From Lama guanicoe (Eukaryota), in the NCBI GenBank assembly GCA_013239625.1, contig MU053881.1, positions 2,914,001 to 2,978,000 of the forward strand: a DNA stretch of 64,000 bases, read 5' to 3'. A model generated the notes under the pieces. The model had not been told where the DNA came from, did no database searches, and worked only from the letters and a program-made list of their open reading frames with translations. Below, in pieces: positions 7,690 through 63,231 of this stretch. How positions within the stretch are numbered: the first letter of the stretch is position 1; every line of letters begins with the position of its first letter. The position numbers and the translations under genes were made by a program.

Positions 7690-8030
7690 ATTTTCTTTTT
7701 TTTTTTGAAGTATAGTCAGTTTTCAATGTTGTGTCAATTTCTGGTGTACAGCAGAATGTTTCAGTCATCCATNNNNNNNNNNNNNNNNNNNNNNNNNNNN
7801 NNNNNNNNNNNNNNNNNNNNNNNNNNNNNNNNNNNNCCCCTGACCTCTCCCCCCTGGTAACCACAAGTTTGTATCCTATGTCTAGGAGTCCGTTTCTGTT
7901 TGGTAAATAAGTTCATTTGTATTATTTTCTTAGATTCCACATATGAGTGATGTCATATGGTGTTTTTCTTTCTCTCATTGGCTGTCTTCACTTAGTATGA
8001 TCATCTCCAGGCCCATCCATGTTGCTGCTG
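7690..8030 (-). mobile_element. L1 3' end fragment spanning an assembly gap
   Basis: T-tail followed by TTGAAGTATAGTCAGTTTTCAATGTTGTGTC...TAGATTCCACATATGAGTGA. N run at 7773-7836. Confidence 0.85.
7773..7836. other. Assembly gap (N run)
   Basis: Run of N. Confidence 1.
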
Positions 8031-13193: not shown

Positions 13194-13262
13194 NNNNNNN
13201 NNNNNNNNNNNNNNNNNNNNNNNNNNNNNNNNNNNNNNNNNNNNNNNNNNNNNNNNNNNNNN
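13194..13262. other. Assembly gap (N run)
   Basis: Run of N next to a G homopolymer. Confidence 1.
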
Positions 13263-48491: not shown

Positions 48492-50072
48492 GAATGTTTA
48501 GTTTCCTCTCACTGTTGTAACAAATCACCCCAAACTTAGTGGCTTAAACAACAAACATTTATTCTCCTATAGTTCTGGAGATCAGAAGTCCAATGAGAGG
48601 ACAACCTACGGAATGGGAGAAAATCTTTGCAAATGAAACCAACAAAGTCTTAATCTCCAGAATATATAAGCAGCTCATACGACTTAATAAGAAACAACCA
48701 AACAACCCAATCCAAAGATGGGCAGAAGACCTAAACAAGCAATTCTCCAAGGAAGACATACAAATTATCAATAAGCACATGAAAAAATGCTCAATATCAC
48801 TAATTATCAGAGAAATGCAAATCAAAACTACAATGAGGTATCACCTCACACCAGTCAGAATGGCCATCATTCAAAATTCCACAAATGATAAATGCTGGAG
48901 AGGATGTGGAGAAAGGGGAACCCTCCTACACTGCTTGTGGGAATGCAGTTTGGTGCAGCCACTGTGGAAAACAGTGTGGAGATTCCTCAAAAGACTAGGA
49001 ATAGACTTACCTTATGACCCGGGAATCCCGCTCCTGGGCCTATATCCAGAAGGAACCCTACTTCAGGATGACAGCTGCACCCCAATGTTCATAGCAGCAC
49101 TATTTACAATAGCTAAGATGTGGAAACAGCGTAAATGTCCATCAATGGATGACTGGATAAAGAAGAAGTGGTATAGTCATACAATGGAATACTATTCAGC
49201 CATAAAAACTGACAACATAACGCCATTTGCAGCAACATGGATGCTCCTGGAGAATGTCATTCTAAGTGAAGTAAGCCAGAAAGAGAAAGAAAAATACCAT
49301 ATGAGATTGCTCATATGTGGAATCTAAAAAACAAAAACAAAAAAACCAAAGCATAAATACAAAACAGAAATAGACTCATAGACATAGAATACAAACTTGT
49401 GGTTGCCAAGGGGGCAGGGGGTGGGAAGGGATAGATGGGATTTTAAAATTATAGAATAGATAAACAAGATTATACTGTATAGCACAGGGAAATATACACA
49501 AGATCTTATGGTAGCTCACAGAGAAAAAATGTGACAATGAATATATATATGTTCATGTATAACTGAAAAATTGTGCTCTATACTGGAATCTGACACAACA
49601 TTGTAAAATGATTATAAATCAATAAAAAATGTTAAAAAAAAAAGAAGTCCAATGAGGCTCAGACTCACTGGGCTAACATCAAAGTGTGGACAGGACAAGC
49701 TGCCTTCCTGAGGCTCTAGGGGAGAATCCATTTCTTTGCCTTTTCCAGCTTCTGGGACCTTTTCCACTCTCCTTGGCTTATGGGTACTTTCTCCATCTTC
49801 AAAGCCAGGAACGTTGGGCTAAGTCTTTCTCATGCCGCCATCTCTCTGGTTCTCCCCTTCTGCTTTCCTCTTCTCTAAAGACCCTGGTGATTACACTGAG
49901 CCCAGCTGGATAATCTGGGATAATCTCTCATTTTAAGATCAGGTGATTAGCAAGCTTAATTTCATCTGCAGGCTTAATTCTTCTTCGCTGTATAAAGTAA
50001 AAACACATTCACAGGTTTTAGAGGTTAGGACACAGACATCTTTGTGGAGGGACATTGTTCTGCCCATCGCAG
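48492..50072 (-). mobile_element. MaLR solo LTR (MLT1D-like) split by a young L1
   Basis: TGTAACAAATCACCCCAAACTTAGTGGCTTAAACAAC before the insert and GAGGCTCTAGGGGAGAATCCATTTC...ACATTCACAGGTT after it. Confidence 0.85.
48598..49642 (+). mobile_element. Young 5'-truncated L1 with uninterrupted ORF2 C-terminal frame
   Basis: ORF 48593-49327 (244 aa) is the L1 ORF2p C-terminus ([11 protein letters not shown]...[18 protein letters not shown]...LSEVSQ). AATAAA and A-tail present. 14-bp TSD AGAAGTCCAATGAG at 48584-48597 and 49643-49656. Confidence 0.97.
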
Positions 50073-54599: not shown

Positions 54600-55420
54600 G
54601 TTTGTGCTCCTCCTGCCTTCCAGACTCCCTGCTGGATTCTCCCTAAGCACCTCAGGCCCAGAGGCCCCAAACCAAACTCATATTTGTCTCCTACCAATGT
54701 TCCAGATCTTGGAGAATGGAATCATCCAAGATGGAGACACTGGCATTGGCCTACACGCCTCCCTCCTCCATGCCCCTCACATCCAGTCCTCAAGTCCTGC
54801 CAATTTGTCCTCCTCTATGGCCTTCGGATCTGCCTACCCCCCCGTCACTCCTTCACCACTGCCTGGGGTCGGTTCTCACCATCTCTAAACCTGATGTTGC
54901 CCCAGTCTTCCTTGGGCTCCCAGTTCACCCTCCTCACAGCCCTAATGATCTTCCTCAGTCTGCATACTTGATCATGTCACAGCTCTGCTCAGCATCCTTC
55001 AGTGGCTCTCCATTGCCTGCAGGCAGAGCCCACGTTCCATTGCACGGCGTCCCACCCTGGTTGATGTCCCCAGGCTCTCAGCTTTTCTCATTCCCCTACT
55101 TCCTCCTCCCTCATTCCCACCACCCATGTTAAACTCTGCCAGCGCCTCTGCCTGGAGTGTCCTCTTTCTCCACCAAGCTGACTCCTCTGCATTTACGACT
55201 CATCTCAGATGTCACCTCCTCCAGGGAGCCTTCCTCAAGTGCCCAGCTTTGCCTATATCGCTGCTCATGATGCAGTGGGTCATTGGTCTGTTTTGCTGCC
55301 TGTCTCTTCTATTATCCGGCAGATTCCTGGATGGTAAGGGCTGTTGACTGGTGTTCATACACTTAGTAGAGTGCCTAGTGAGTGGTAGCAGCTCAGAAAG
55401 TACCATTTAACTGAGTGCAT
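54600..55420 (+). mobile_element. L2 fragment
   Basis: CACATCCAGTC...CCTTCAGTGGCTCTCCATTGCC...CTCAGATGTCACCTCCTCCAGGGAGCCTTCC. Confidence 0.7.
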
Positions 55421-55884
55421 TAAGACTCTTAAGACATTCGGGACCAAAAGTGAGAGGATGCTGGCATTTCCCCACCAGCGATTCACTGACTTTGGGGGAG
55501 CCACTGAGTGTGAAGGAGAGGAGAGTGGGGAGAGGAGAAACATCTGAGTGCCTGGGGGTGGGCTGTTTGCTGAGAAGGGCCGTGGGCTGTGGGAGGACAG
55601 TAGCTGGCATGCTGGTGGAGCACACAGATGGTCTCCCAGGGAAGCCCAACGCCCTGTGTTCTCCTTAACTCCAATCCTCGGGCTTGGAAGGTCCTTGGAG
55701 CTCAGCCTCCAGCTCTGGGAATGGCCTCAGTCTTGCAGAAGCACTTAGGGAACCTGCTGTTGGCCCCTGACCTGCTCTGAGACACTCCCCTCCAACTTGT
55801 GACCGAAGAGGTTTGGGGTCTGGCTCCTCTGAAGCTCTGCTCAACTCCTGCTTCCTTGTAGGGAAGGGGGAATTGCCTCAGCCT

Positions 55885-56438
55885 CTGTGGGGGCAGACAC
55901 TAAGATGTCCCCAGTGATCCCTGTCCTGGTGTTTGCACATTTGTGTCATCCTCTCCCTGTAAGTGTGGTTGGGGTCTGTGACTTCTAACTAATAGGATAT
56001 GGCAAAAGTGACGGGATGTCACTTCCAGGGTCAGGTTACATAACATCGTGGCTTCTATCTTACTAGCCAGTGCTCTCTATTGCTCTCTTGGCTTACATGC
56101 TTTGATGAAGCAAGGTGCCGTGCTGTGAGCTGCCCTAGTGGAGGGACCCACAGGAATGGAGAGCAGTCTCCAGACAACAGCCAGCCAGGAGCTGAGGCCC
56201 TCAGTCCTACAGGAACCAAATCTTGCCAGCAAGCACGTGAGTTTGGCCTGCCCCTCTGAACATTCAGGTGAGACCCAGCCCTGGCCTGAGCCTTGACTGC
56301 AGCCTGGTGAGAGATCTTGAAGCAGAAAACTCAGCCCAGCTATTCCTGGACAAAACCCACGAAACTGAGGTAATAATCACGCGTTGCTTTAAGCCATTCA
56401 GTTTGTGGTCCTTTGTGATGCAGCAATAGATAACTAAT
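55885..56438 (+). mobile_element. MaLR solo LTR (MLT1E/F-like)
   Basis: TGTGGGGGCAGACACTAAGATG start; TTTAAGCCATTCAGTTTGTGG...GCAGCAATAGATAACTAAT end. Confidence 0.85.
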
Positions 56439-58007
56439 CCAGCCCCCCATTGCACGGAGCTCCCCCAGCTCCAAGAGTCCAGGGGGCCTGCTGCCCATCG
56501 TGCACTAGCCAAGGCTCCTGGGGGAGAACAGGCAGGCGGGGTCAGGATTTCCTCTCCCTGCACTTCTAGTAAGAGCAGAGAGTTAAGGGAAAAGTGACTG
56601 TGGCCACCAGGTAGAGGAGATGGAGACTGATCCCTTGGCTGAGTCAGCACTAGGGCTCCTGAGCACCCGTCGTAGGCTAGATTCTGTGGTGGGTGCGGGC
56701 ACTGGGGCACCAGCCAGCCCTGTCCTTACAAAGCTTGCGAGTTAATGAGACAGATGTGCAGTGGCCTCAATTAGAGAGTTTGCACAGTGCCATTCATTGG
56801 ATGCCTGGTACACGGTGCTAAGAGCGTGTGGGCAGCACCTCATTCACTTCCTACGACAACTGCTGAGGTCAGAGCAATTCTTATTATCCTGACTTGCAAT
56901 TCCTGACTTGCGAGCAAACACTCTCAAGGGTTAAGTGGATTCCTCAGGCTCACTCTGCTGGGTGACAGAACCCACCAGCAAAGCCAGTGCTGTCTGAGCA
57001 CTCAGCCGTGATGCTCTGCGTTGTGTGAACACAGCGACAAACTCTGCTGTGGCCGTGGGGATGGGGCTGCATCAGAGGGGGCTTCACACAGGAGGAGACG
57101 TCAGAGCTAGATCTTGAGAAGTTAGGAGTTCACCAGGGAGGCGAAGGGAACCATTCATTCCAGGCAGAGGGGTCAGAATAGGCACATGTGAAACAGCACA
57201 CAGCATGTGTGGGGAGCTTGGAGTGGAGTTGGGTGTGGGTCTGACCCAGCCAGCTGGGGTCATATCACAGAGACTGTTTTGGCAATTTTGATGTTGTCCT
57301 GTAGGCCATTGAAGGGTGCTGGGCAGGGGAGTGACAAGGCTAAGTTTGAGTTTTAGGTGAGTCTTTTAGGTGGGGCAGGGTGGTGGGGAGAGGATGGGTG
57401 GAAGGGAAGAGGTAGAGGCTAGGGGACCAGTGGGTGGGGGATGGGAGGTGCCTATACAAGCGGAGAGAAGGGGCCTAGCTTAAGGCAGGGAAATGGTGGG
57501 GGGGCAACTGAGTGTGGTCTGGTCCTGACTCCTCAGTAAGTCCTGGGATGTATCTGCGTCCAGGAGCAATGCTGAGCGGCACCGTCTCTGTATCCCCAAC
57601 CTCCTGCACACGCCTGGCTGAGGGAGGAACTCCATCAATGTTGGTAGGATGACCAGTGACAGACTTTGCACTGCCATGTGACTTGATTCTGTGCCAAGAT
57701 GCCACACCCAAGGAGACCTGGGGGAAGGGTGGCCAGAGGTAGGGTGTGGGGTGTTGCAATCAGGTTGGACCACCAGCTCTTGGGGTTGTCAGTGGGTTTA
57801 GAAGGAAGGGCAGGAGGTGAGTGGCCCTGAAACTCTGGGGCCAGTCACCACTCTAGCCTGGGTTGGTTTCTGGGGCACTGATGGTGTCCTGGCCAGAAGA
57901 CAGGGTAAAACTGAGCCTCTTGAGCGCTGTGGGTTGGCCCCCATCATTTCAGCTGGTGCCCCATGTAGCCCTGGCGGTGCCGATGGACAGAAGATGACAG
58001 ACCGAGA

Positions 58008-61000
58008 GCTGCTGTACAAGGTCTTCTTTGTTGTCATGATTGGTTTGGTACATCTTAGCATCTGCGTCATACAAAGGGGGAGCAACAGCCATGGCTTTTG
58101 GTCAGGTTCAGGGGGGCTTGGGAGGGCGCCCCTCCCCTCCCCCCAGGCACTGACACATTTAAAGGAGGCAGAGCAACAAGGACACAGCACAGATGTGGGA
58201 AAGGGATTCCCCCGTGCGAGCAGGATGGTCGTCCTCACCTGGGTCTCGCTAGGGCCCTCACCCCAACCCGAAGGCCAGAAGGAGCACCTCCCATTCTCTC
58301 CCCAGTGAAGAGGGTGGGACATAGGAGTGGGAAGGGAGCAGGGGACATGTGTGGGGAGCTTGTCCTCGGGCCTGAGAGACATCCCGCCATCTGAGTCAGT
58401 CTGACCCCCAGCCCCCTGTGCCGTCAAGGCCCTGAGGGATCAGGATGGAGCAGTTGGATGGTGGGCCTGCACCACCCTGCCGGCTGGGTGCCGGGGGCTC
58501 TTTGGGCTAGTAGTCTGCTTCATATTACTCTAGCCACGAGCCTTTGGGGTGGCTGCTTTGCCCACCAGCTGTCCCACCTGAGAGGGGTCTGGGCTGAAGT
58601 GCTTTTGTTCTGCCTCCCTTTCCCCTTCTCTCTCTCTCACACACCCCTGGGAGGGTCTCTTGACCTCCTGTTTGCCTTTGGAAGAGACCCCTTTGTAGTT
58701 AAGGACACCCCCCAGGACCTTCTGGATCTGGAGCAGAGGATATCCAGGCATGGAAATTCTGGCCATTACCAGTGCCCAGCACAGGAGATCCAGGGAGGCC
58801 CTTCCCTTCTCTCTGGCGCTCAGCTCCCAGGCACACAGCCTGGCAGGGGCCTTCCCTGGCAAGCGGGTATTTTGTTCTGTCTTTACTCATGTGCGATGAG
58901 TGCTCCTTCCTACTTCTCTAGCTGGGGGATGTCTCTCTTGTATGTTGTACGTGTGTGCGCTGAATTCTGGGACCTCTCCCTCCCTGTCCCCGCCTCCTAA
59001 GTGTGTCACATGCACACTGCCCCTCGTGTGTGACACACTTCCCCTTCCCATCCATGGGCACAGATATCTCCTGCTCCAGGTGCTTCACGTGAACATCCCT
59101 TCCCTGCTAGAGCACCCCACAAATATTTTGTGCCTGCCCCAGTGTGTTGCATGTGACATCCTCTCTGGGCTACTTAGCCTCTCTCTGCAGTGAGGTCTGT
59201 GTCAGGAATGATGGTCTTCGTGTTTCCCTGGACCCAAGAGTGATCACCTGACAGTGGTTGGAGCCAGGTATGTCCCAGACAGAAATTCTCCCCCTAACCC
59301 TACCTCCAGGAAGAACTCTATCCTGCTGCTCCAAAGCAGGCTGGAGGAGTCTGGGGGAGTCCAGGATGTGCACCAGACTAAGCCAGCCAGTCTGGAAGGC
59401 ATTCTCATATGGGAAAAGCTCTGAGCCTGCTCTGGGGGTGCAGAAGAGCTGTGGAGACCTTGAGAGATGCCCTCTGAGGGTCTGGGGTTTCTCAGGTCTG
59501 CCTGGAATGTCTTGCATGGCCGGGGTCCCCTACTCATCTGAAGCTCCCCCAGCTTCATTCTCTGCTGCCCATCTGGCACTCTCTGTGCCCTGGCACCACC
59601 TTTGATGTCTGGGGGCCCCTGTCAAGATGAACTTTCTGAACACATGGGGTCCACCCCTGTGTCCAGGTGGGGCCCACACAGGGTCTGGGGAGGTCAGGGG
59701 TCCCTGGACTAGACTCTGCCTGTCTCTGCCCTAGGACCCTGGGGCTCCTGAGAATGACCATCCTGCCCAGGATAATAGACACAAACAGACAAGCAGATGA
59801 CAGGGGTGCGAGGTGGCTCCCCATCACAGGCACAGACACAGACACAGGCCCCCTGGGGGGCAGAACACAGGGGCACGGGGGAGGGGGCAGGGGATGGGGA
59901 GAAGGGCAAGTCCAGGGAGCTGGAGCTGCTGAGGCCCTGCTCCCCGGAGAAGGGACAGACCAGGGGATTTTTCTGGTTCCCTAAACATATGGATTGTTTT
60001 CTCTCGTCTTTAAAGTATTGCAGTCTAACTGATATGGCTTTAACTATTGGAAACAGACAGAGAAGACACATGTCTCTCTCTGAAATAAAAGCATAAATTC
60101 ACTAAAATGGAAAACCTGCAGAATGCAAATGGGGGTCAATGGGGCAGGGGCTTCGGGGCAGGCAAGTCGCCCCCTCCCTGGCCCCTGCTTTTGGGGTAGG
60201 CCCTGGTAGGGGCCCAGCATGGCTTCTTGAGGCTCTGCCTGTGTCCATCCCAGTGGACTTCTGAGAACTTCAGGCAGGAACCCCCCAAGGGTGGGACAAC
60301 TCTAGGCCAAGGACAAAGCCTCCTGTTGGATGTGGCCACTTGTCACTAAAGATTTGTGGGCCAAGAGAGGGCGTCTTACCTATGTTCCTTCTCCCCAAGC
60401 ACATGTCCTGCTCACAACTGCCTTTTCAGAGCCACTCACATGCACACAACATTCTCATTATTCTCACACAACTCTCTTAAAGACACACTTCTTCAACACC
60501 TAACACATACCCATCACTCCTGACATACATGCTCTTTTTGAAAACCAGTGCAGATACAACCTAGCATATGCAAGCTCTAACACACATATGAGATGGCTAG
60601 CACACACACAAGACACAATGTCAACTCACACACACCACCTTAAACAAGCATACACACACAAGGCTACCTAACGTACATGGTCTCTAACATGGGGATGATG
60701 ACTAACACACACACGCACAGTCTCAAGACATGCAAACACTCTAGCCATAGACTTACATGTACAATGTCTGGACACACAACTGCTGATGCAGTCTCTGCCA
60801 TGCACACTCATGCAGGCCTTGGACACACACTTTCCTCTCTCATTTGCTCCGTGGCTCCCCAGTTCTCATGCAACTGCCTGAGCAGGAGGCCTTGACAATT
60901 TGGGATGGGGGAAACCAGTGCCAGTCTCACACATCCCAGAGGAGAGTCTGTTCTTGGCCAATGAGACGAATGGACAGATGTCTTCTGTCAAGTGGGGACT

Positions 61001-61976
61001 GGCTTCTTCCCCAAAACTTGGGGCTTTGACCAGGAAGGGTCCACCTGGGGACCACACGGCCCTGGAAGCACATGAATAGGACAGGGTGGGGAAGAGAGGT
61101 GGATAGGAATGGGGGCAGCTTGGCTGCACCAATGGAGGGTTCCCGTGGCACACACCATCACTGCCCGATGGCTCCGAGTGTTTTCTGTGGGTCCTGGGCA
61201 GCCCCTTGGCTGGGTAAGTTGGGGCCAGCCTGGCAGTGGGGCCCCAGGACCTAAGTAGAGTTGGGGGAGGAAAAAGGGGCTGCCCTACCCTGGGGCCCCT
61301 CCACAGATGAGTTAAAGTCCACAGAGGATCCATTTGGAGGGACTGGCTTGGCAGGGGTTATGCCTTTGTGGGTAGGGACTGAGGGAGGGTGCTTCTGGAC
61401 TGGGTGTCATCGGAGGGAGGGAAGAAGGAGAGCCCCAGCCTCCTGCCCAGACCCAGGCCTGGCCAGACCGGGATTGGCCAGCCTCAGGCTGGGCCCTCTC
61501 AGGGCAGGCTTACCCTGACTCCCTTCCTCAGAGCCAGGCCACTTGACGTCCCTGCCGTGACCTGGAGGTCCACTGGGGATTAGAGGCCAAAGGTCAGCAT
61601 GCTGGGCAGGGCTGGAATGTGTCATTACTTTGGCTGGCTGGGGACAGTGGTCCTCCTGGCAGTGGGGTGCATGAAGGAATGTATGGGGATTAACACAGTA
61701 AGCATAGACCTTAGGATTCCAGAGGGGGTGGGGGGCCAGTGCCTTCTGCACTGGGGTCAGTGCTCCCTGCTGGAGAAACGATGTCCTTTCTTTTTCGAGC
61801 AACTTGGGGATGAGGTGGAGGCTGGATCCCCTGGGATGAAGGAGGTGTGAGGGAGTGCCGAGGGGGAGGAGCCCCTGGCCAAGGAAGGAGGGCAGAGGCC
61901 AGCTGAGGTTTTCCCCTTCAGAACTGAGACTTAACTGAATAAAAAGAAAAGAAAGAACCAAAAAAAAAAAAAAAAG
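58008..61976 (-). other. CPLX2: Probable long 3'UTR of CPLX2
   Basis: About 4 kb directly downstream of the last exon with no recognisable interspersed repeat, unlike the flanks. Ends at a TGTA/AACAAA cluster. The 3' end is inferred. Confidence 0.7.
60430..60830. repeat. CA-rich low-complexity tract (UG-rich in CPLX2 mRNA)
   Basis: Many interrupted ACACAC runs. Confidence 0.75.
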
Positions 61977-62144
61977 AGGCAGGTATTTGAGCACCGTGTC
62001 CAGGATGCTCTCCTCCTCCTCCTCCTCCTCGTCCCCGCAGCCCGCCGGGATGGCCTTCTTGGGCCGGGTCAGGCTCCCCTCGCAGGGCTGCTCCAGGGCT
62101 GCCTTCTCCTCAGCCTCCTTCTCCTCCTTCTTCTTCAGCCCGTA
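61977..62144 (-). CDS. CPLX2: Complexin-2, last coding exon, homologous part (ends ...KYLP; canonical last 9 aa and stop absent, frame open to 61407)
   Basis: Acceptor CTCCAG, then [56 protein letters not shown], which matches complexin-2. The sequence then enters a T-rich UTR-like tract. Confidence 0.96.
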
Positions 62145-62888
62145 CTGGAGAGGGGAAGGATGGAGAGCAGCATGAGCGCAGGGCAAAGAGAGAGCTGGGT
62201 CTCAAGGTCATGCACACGTGGCCGGGGCAGCTTGTGAAAACCCCTCAGCCTTGGTCCTCTCATCTATAAAATGAGGGTAAGGACACCTTCCTCAGCGGAT
62301 GCTCAGTAAGAGGAAGAGAGATGGTGCCTAGGGTTTCCTCTAAAATCAAGTCCTGCCCACCCACATAATTCCTCTATTCTTCCTAAATCCTCCAAGATCT
62401 GAAAACTGAACGTTCTCCCATACACTTGGAGCCAAATTTTGGTGACAAAACTGGACTGGAACTGATGGAAGGCTACATATAGCCTTGATTTACTGCAGTG
62501 TGAGCAGACAAGTATCGAACTGCTGGCATAGGGTGGCAGCTACAGACTCGCTGGGAGTGACACGTAACAGTGCTCACTATGGCACTTCCCAAATATCCCC
62601 ACATTCTGGGTTCCAAACTTGTTTCGTCTCCAGGATTTCGGGGACACGGTCGTGGACCTGGAGCAGCACACATTAGGGGGCACTTACCATGGGCATCATC
62701 TTATTTAATCCCCATAACGGCCCTTGAGGGAGGTGTTCCTGTGACATGCATTTTTCCAATGAGTCAGGTTCAGAGAGAGCTAGGTGTAAGGCGAGGGCTG
62801 GAATTCAGGGAAGCCCGAAGCTGAAGCCGGGGGTTGGGGGGACCCTTTAACCCCTACGCTCCGAGGTGGGCAGGAGGGCGGCGCTGAC

Positions 62889-63064
62889 CTTGTCCCGGAT
62901 CTGCTGCCGGACCTTCTCGCGCTCCGCCTCCATGCGCGCGTGCTTGGCCTTGCGCTCCTCCTCCTGCTGCCGAAGTGCCTCCTGCCGCTCCTCCTCCTTC
63001 TTCTGCGCGTCAGGGTCCTTCTCCTCCTCTCCCCCCAACATCTTCCCCATGTCCTTGGTGGCCC
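62889..63064 (-). CDS. CPLX2: Complexin-2, second coding exon (176 nt; accessory and central SNARE-binding helix)
   Basis: Encodes (G)[58 protein letters not shown]. Acceptor CCCCGCAG and donor GTCAGC; 31+176=207 nt keeps frame. Confidence 0.98.
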
Positions 63065-63200
63065 CTGCGGGGAGTGGGTTGGAGAGGAAGAGGGCGGGGT
63101 CATGGGGGTAAGGATGGGAATGGGGATGGGGGCCGTGATGCGCTGTGGCCCCTCCCCCCTGGCTCTGGACTGGGTGAGGGGTGCAGGGCCGGGACCTCAC

Positions 63201-63231
63201 CTCCGAGGGCCTGCTTCATGACGAAGTCCAT
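63201..63231 (-). CDS. CPLX2: Complexin-2, first coding exon (coding part; whole exon about 63201-63322)
   Basis: Minus strand reads ATGGACTTCGTCATGAAGCAGGCCCTCGGAG|GTGAG = [10 protein letters not shown], the complexin-2 N-terminus. Kozak context GGCATGG, GT donor at 63200-63199, upstream acceptor TTTTGCAG ending at 63323. Confidence 0.97.

Follow-up and report, generated by a model that had tools for sequence, protein, structure and literature searches.

Background

Complexin-2 (CPLX2) of vertebrates (Synaphin family PF05835; UniRef100 RepID CPLX2_HUMAN) is a protein of 134 amino acids with the C-terminal sequence GPLQDMFKK, and its exact canonical sequence forms a UniRef100 entry of its own (n=282 UniProt entries). 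A study on mouse chromaffin cells (PMC11589869) reports that the hydrophobic face of helix 115-134, composed of L117, L121, L124 and L128, prevents premature secretion, that truncation or the double substitution L124E-L128E removes the complexin clamp, and that an unrelated amphipathic helix restores it. Mice devoid of Cplx2 have been described as viable and fertile in PMC6680196.

Two other bodies of work bear on an apparent loss of this C-terminus. PMC10364623 describes the SGTA-BAG6-RNF126 route and GCN1-linked mRNA decay (GCN1-CCR4/NOT) as removing read-through proteins whose tails are hydrophobic. False exon losses and indels, which showed a GC bias, have been found (PMC9516821) to hit approximately 26-60% of the genes in older vertebrate assemblies.

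In this work we have analyzed the CPLX2 locus in a 64,000-nt stretch of the guanaco (Lama guanicoe) genome assembly, referred to as the window. An earlier note on this DNA stated that CPLX2 'has lost' its C-terminus and runs on into a novel segment of 189 amino acids, and preferred an assembly mis-join to a real deletion as the cause. The analysis presented here indicates that the assembly does contain the run-on and that the animal probably does not.

Results

The CPLX2 gene as assembled

The coding part of the gene and the region of the break comprise the following features.

63201 to 63231, minus strand: coding part of the first exon, 31 nt, ATG at 63231, GT donor
62889 to 63064, minus strand: middle coding exon, 176 nt, match to Pfam PF05835 (Synaphin), E 2.5e-16
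61977 to 62144, minus strand: last coding exon as assembled, 168 nt, residues 70-125, ends KYLP
61976 to 61978, minus strand: break point, about 59-64 nt absent in comparison with other mammals, exact edge ambiguous by a few bases
61960 to 61975, minus strand: T16 tract of the proximal 3'UTR, the length of which fixes the run-on reading frame

All four splice sites are of the GT/AG type and the three coding exons, intact in this respect, sum to 125 codons. The PF05835 profile scored over the Pfam cut-off for two of them: the middle exon, which we take to encode the accessory and central helix region, and the last exon, aligned to profile positions 74-133 of 142. Over these 125 residues no mismatch separates the window from records of cattle, goat and penguin (P0114, P0115, P0010 and P0014 of the protein collection), and a single one separates it from the emu record P0007. 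Judged by its Synaphin/complexin domain and by CPLX2 as the nearest sequence, the gene at 61977-63231 (minus strand) is assigned to complexin-2.

The window thus agrees with vertebrate complexin-2 in residues 1-125, which are identical, and in the three coding exons, and its proximal 3'UTR has homologous counterparts in other mammals. It differs in that the assembly has no codons for residues 126-134, no stop codon and some 30 nt less of UTR, so that helix 115-134 does not reach its GPLQDMFKK end and the frame continues into the UTR.

The break point and the missing piece

The codon for Pro125 (61979-61977) is followed by a single C (61976) and then by T16 (A16 at 61960-61975 on the plus strand). 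Re-reading of the sequence confirmed the anatomy described in the earlier note, i.e. an exon ending KYLP, the T16 tract and a frame open to 61407, as well as the absence from the assembly of nine codons, the stop and some UTR, which can now be sized at about 59-64 nt against three mammals. The size was obtained from codon counts between anchors shared with three mammalian records, P0093, P0061 and P0135, which hold 59 (75 vs 16 nt), 64 (81 vs 17 nt) and 61 (78 vs 17 nt) more bases than the window, respectively; hence about 60 nt are missing at the break. This corresponds to 30 nt for the nine codons and the stop plus approximately 30 nt of UTR, with 30 nt as the minimum and a camelid figure that may differ from the three-mammal estimate.

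Degenerate translations of other mammals, the only source in this respect, suggest that the lost piece may have had a short repeat (CCTGCC or ACCTG) at both ends: P0093 and P0061 give PPA/IPA readings there and the motif CAC[C/T]TGT fits both. No long repeat was found at the break in a repeat scan of 61700-62300. Neither a GT donor nor an N run is present at the junction.

The surroundings of the break are error-prone. It adjoins the sole homopolymer of at least 12 nt between 35044 and 64000 (the A16/T16 tract), the flanking exon DNA is 72% GC, and two N gaps interrupt the window, at 7773-7836 (64 bases) and 13194-13262 (69 bases); a run rich in C or G borders either gap on one side. Since the window contains two such gaps, the assembly is a gapped draft. 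The gaps match the missing piece in size, which is suggestive only.

The run-on frame and the 3'UTR

Downstream of the break the following features were recognized.

61407 to 61976, minus strand: 189-codon open frame in the 3'UTR, TGA at 61409-61407, no Pfam family in the part scanned
61803 to 61973, minus strand: part of the extension matching conserved CPLX2 3'UTR, 41 of 57 residues identical to the off-frame record P0093
61926 to 61982, minus strand: hydrophobic stretch of the run-on, residues 124-142, Kyte-Doolittle 19-residue mean 2.39 vs at most 0.23 in canonical CPLX2
61830 to 61856, minus strand: possible acceptor site within the UTR, composed of a pyrimidine tract and a CAG ending at 61831

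As assembled, the predicted run-on protein comprises 314 amino acids (125 of CPLX2 and 189 of the extension). No Pfam family was detected in the first 139 residues of the extension (61976-61560; the last 50 lay outside the scan). Comparison with mammalian records identifies the extension as conserved proximal CPLX2 3'UTR read as protein, not as novel sequence. P0093 translates the last exon out of frame; its reading continues past the canonical tail and stop and thereafter agrees with the extension of the window (72% identity over 57 residues). P0061, frameshifted at residue 119, also traverses the canonical tail into the UTR and ends like the second frame of the window. An antisense-frame protein search gave seven matches among 30 candidates, six of which carry the antisense of the canonical tail; P0135, a match from this search, extends from the UTR into the exon.

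The dependence of the extension on the homopolymer, stated in the earlier note, was borne out: T16 gives 189 residues, T15 gives 14 and T17 gives 19. Among the relatives compared for frame conservation (P0093 and ruminant models, none of them camelid), the homologous UTR frame of P0093 closes once the 57 matching residues have been read, and that of the goat and cattle models 45 residues past position 134. These early closures, together with the failure to find a protein record of the read-through, provide no sign of a selected extension, and the claim of a novel 189-amino-acid segment could not be upheld: it is ordinary UTR. When the 1.5 kb downstream were resampled 5000 times (first-order), an opening of 189 codons arose 7 times; a frame of this length is uncommon here and counts against an assembly artefact. 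The long open frame is nevertheless a property of the UTR however the junction arose, and a random join enters it one time in three.

No AATAAA or ATTAAA occurs on the CPLX2 strand in 55001-62000 (minus strand), i.e. within the 7 kb past the last coding exon; the CPLX2 poly(A) site is either non-canonical, more distant or affected by the assembly. Long open frames are present at 48548-49324 (plus strand) and 26662-26126 (minus strand), presumably resembling C-terminal fragments of LINE-1 ORF2. A crude ORF list gave no sign of a further protein-coding gene over the 61 kb that follow CPLX2.

Ruminant models extending past the stop codon

Four predicted cattle and goat models (P0003 and P0114-P0116) keep GPLQDMFKK and then continue into the UTR frame of the window. 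The frame is the same as in UniRef models A0A4W2I184, A0A3Q1MFN7, A0A4W2C521 and A0A8C2NZF2, which read HLTPKLLEK where the window reads HLIPKLLEK. Translation suggests that the ruminant models enter the UTR through a splice that skips the stop codon, whereas the window has neither the tail nor the donor. Four other records (two from cattle, one each from emu and platypus) end MFKN followed by a different tail. The continuation past MFK(K/N) in all these records (P0003, P0114-P0116, P0010, P0117, P0007 and P0019) fits a donor that would overlap the CPLX2 stop codon and be joined to downstream acceptors. The candidate acceptor at 61831 in the window, itself deduced from the sequence, matches the one implied by the cattle and goat models; it is in the 189-codon frame, the stop of which lies 140 codons further on. 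Such a stop-skipping splice would give, from a camelid gene that is intact, a product of about 274 amino acids (134 + 140). It is possible that a splice over the CPLX2 stop into the UTR frame represents a real, unstudied alternative C-terminus in mammals; no paper on an alternative CPLX2 C-terminus was found among the open-access main texts searched.

Protein, cluster and read surveys

A CPLX2-type exon start is present in 122 of the 217 proteins in the collection, that of the window not counted. Their tails are GPLQDMFKK in 103 records and near-identical to it in 12; one record has another tail and six diverge earlier. The LFFF tail of the window was found in none of these 122 records, a redundant set to which birds and fish contribute many members. 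A 314-amino-acid or similar read-through protein was absent from the 97 matches obtained from 1326 candidates of 134-429 amino acids, and no read-through CPLX2 occurred in the 92 matches from 225 candidates of 99-2000 amino acids. The statement that CPLX2 'has lost' its C-terminus goes beyond the data; no protein record recovered in these searches shows the read-through.

The matches listed in three protein searches and three cluster look-ups included no camelid-named CPLX2 record, intact or broken; in the two large clusters, 40 of 117 and 40 of 201 members were read and 15 listed from each. An intact tail is present in the records of cattle, goat and sheep, the relatives compared, none of which is camelid. 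If camelid annotations are in the collection, a fixed camelid change should have left a read-through gene model there.

Metagenome scans gave 597 pattern matches with the exon-4 protein, none of them confirmed, and no match with a 24-nt UTR pattern. No contig ORF with a camelid-like intron-3 start was found (9 of 15 residues at best). In a sequencing-run index the stretch 61000-62400 was present in 20 of 24 rows; for 147 sampled words the best two rows reached 0.97 and twelve rows 0.95, and none reached 1.00. The shortfall of 4-5 words is what one 30-45-word event would give, but a SNP, an unrelated base error or filtered words would have the same effect, and the index is therefore given no weight as evidence.

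Several mammalian CPLX2 records in the collection are aberrant (lynx P0021, black bear P0099, and P0090, P0097 and P0061) and diverge at residues 105-120. The aberrant tails of black bear and lynx match downstream non-coding DNA of the window at 58619-58539 and 42710-42553 (minus strand), with 61% and 51-67% identity. Such records may reflect assembly or gene-model trouble in the last exon, at the end of which difficulties of this kind seem to recur; they carry no weight in the interpretation given below.

Discussion

The reading that best accommodates these results is a collapse of about 60 nt beside a homopolymer in a gapped draft. On indirect evidence it is likely, in our estimation, that the CPLX2 gene of this animal is ordinary, and the earlier preference for an assembly mis-join over a real deletion is supported to the same degree. 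According to this proposal the guanaco gene would encode the usual 134-amino-acid protein, and a piece of some 60 bases, situated between the codon for Pro125 and the proximal poly-T tract of the 3'UTR, would have gone missing in the assembly. The assembler or a gap-closer would have joined the two sequence ends without a gap at the GC-rich exon end beside the homopolymer, and the join would land by chance in a long open UTR frame, producing the apparent 314-amino-acid protein. We infer both the placement of the loss in the assembly instead of the animal and the mechanism of the join. The proposal is supported by the strong constraint on the gene (125 of 125 residues identical to ruminants, all splice sites intact) and by the fact that one T more or fewer abolishes the long extension. 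The junction without an N run speaks against it, and the short repeats at the junction also fit a microhomology-mediated deletion.

The locus resembles the false gene losses in draft assemblies described in PMC9516821 in having a small coding loss in a GC-rich exon of an otherwise intact and conserved gene within a gapped draft. The errors reported there were confirmed by read mapping, whereas the one proposed here is deduced from the assembled sequence. The bias presented in that paper concerns GC-rich 5' regions, in contrast to a last coding exon beside a T tract, and CPLX genes occur nowhere in the part of its text available (0 occurrences).

A genuine deletion of about 45-64 nt, either private or segregating, which would probably be heterozygous and formed by microhomology-mediated end joining or by slippage at the T tract, is unlikely, yet it is the alternative to be taken most seriously. 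Because the junction is free of N and mice without Cplx2 survive and reproduce (PMC6680196), such an allele could exist in a living animal, and the short repeat that may flank the lost piece (the PPA/IPA readings and the CAC[C/T]TGT motif) would suit its formation. Against it stand the very high conservation of the tail and the position of the site at a homopolymer in a gapped draft. No published report of a camelid CPLX2 variant was found among the open-access main texts searched; camelid variant tables in supplements could bear on this reading.

The product of such an allele would consist of residues 1-125 followed by a hydrophobic UTR-derived tail of 14, 19 or 189 amino acids, depending on the true T count. 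The assembled CPLX2 keeps L117, L121 and L124 and has lost everything from L128 onward, with a uniformly hydrophobic stretch in its place. With the amphipathic helix cut after L124 the clamp would presumably be weakened, in keeping with the chromaffin-cell data of PMC11589869, where loss of helix 115-134 or the L124E-L128E substitution abolishes clamping. The hydrophobic tail would probably direct the protein to SGTA-BAG6-RNF126 degradation, given that BAG6 clears hydrophobic read-through tails (PMC10364623), and the net effect would be hypomorphic or null. If the junction is real, the window shares with those stop-loss and read-through proteins of PMC10364623 a 3'UTR-encoded extension starting with a hydrophobic segment. 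It differs from them in that nine native residues are lost as well, and in that the hydrophobic part opens a long tail instead of lying at the very C-terminus. By this analogy the run-on product would probably be a substrate of quality control and a clamp-defective hypomorph. The likeliest outcome would be an allele of weak or null effect instead of one with a new function, since the helix is cut and hydrophobic tails are cleared.

Much less probable still, and in our opinion very improbable, is a deletion fixed in South American or in all camelids, by which soluble complexin-2 would have become an expressed, membrane-anchored form of 314 amino acids, with half of the clamp helix replaced by a UTR-derived, transmembrane-like segment at residues 124-142. 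It would draw on the UTR frame that the ruminant models seem to enter through a stop-skipping splice. The hydropathy of 2.39 over 19 residues falls exactly at the position of the former helix, and the open frame is long for the local DNA. An unrelated amphipathic helix can substitute for the native one in mouse cells (PMC11589869), and CAAX-anchored complexins are known (PMC5445133), to which the anchored form would be loosely alike on the basis of its hydropathy. The new segment is, however, uniformly hydrophobic and not amphipathic, the tail is plain UTR with a frame not kept open in other mammals, no matching protein model is present in the collection, and the unstable T16 would be required to remain at 3n+1 bases.

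A shift of the last nine codons to a separate downstream exon, restored by splicing, can be dismissed as scarcely credible: the sole tblastn match in the window, LQDMFK at 18226-18209 (minus strand, the same as CPLX2), reads PTLQDMFKEGL-stop in AT-rich and probably LINE-1-derived DNA 44 kb away, is devoid of the preceding GP and of KK-stop and is regarded as a chance match, and with no GT donor at the break the idea is contradicted within the window itself.

If the break is the assembly artefact that we favour, it matters only as a warning that some 60 coding bases can vanish from this assembly with no N run to mark the loss, and therefore its other apparent lesions need read support. Were the allele real, a synaptic protein that hardly varies would have a naturally occurring C-terminal mutant, cut in the helix that prevents premature fusion (PMC11589869), and the allele could be relevant to animals with neurological signs. 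The membrane-anchored form, if true, would offer a natural test of whether the C-terminus of complexin-2 needs amphipathicity or mere membrane tethering.
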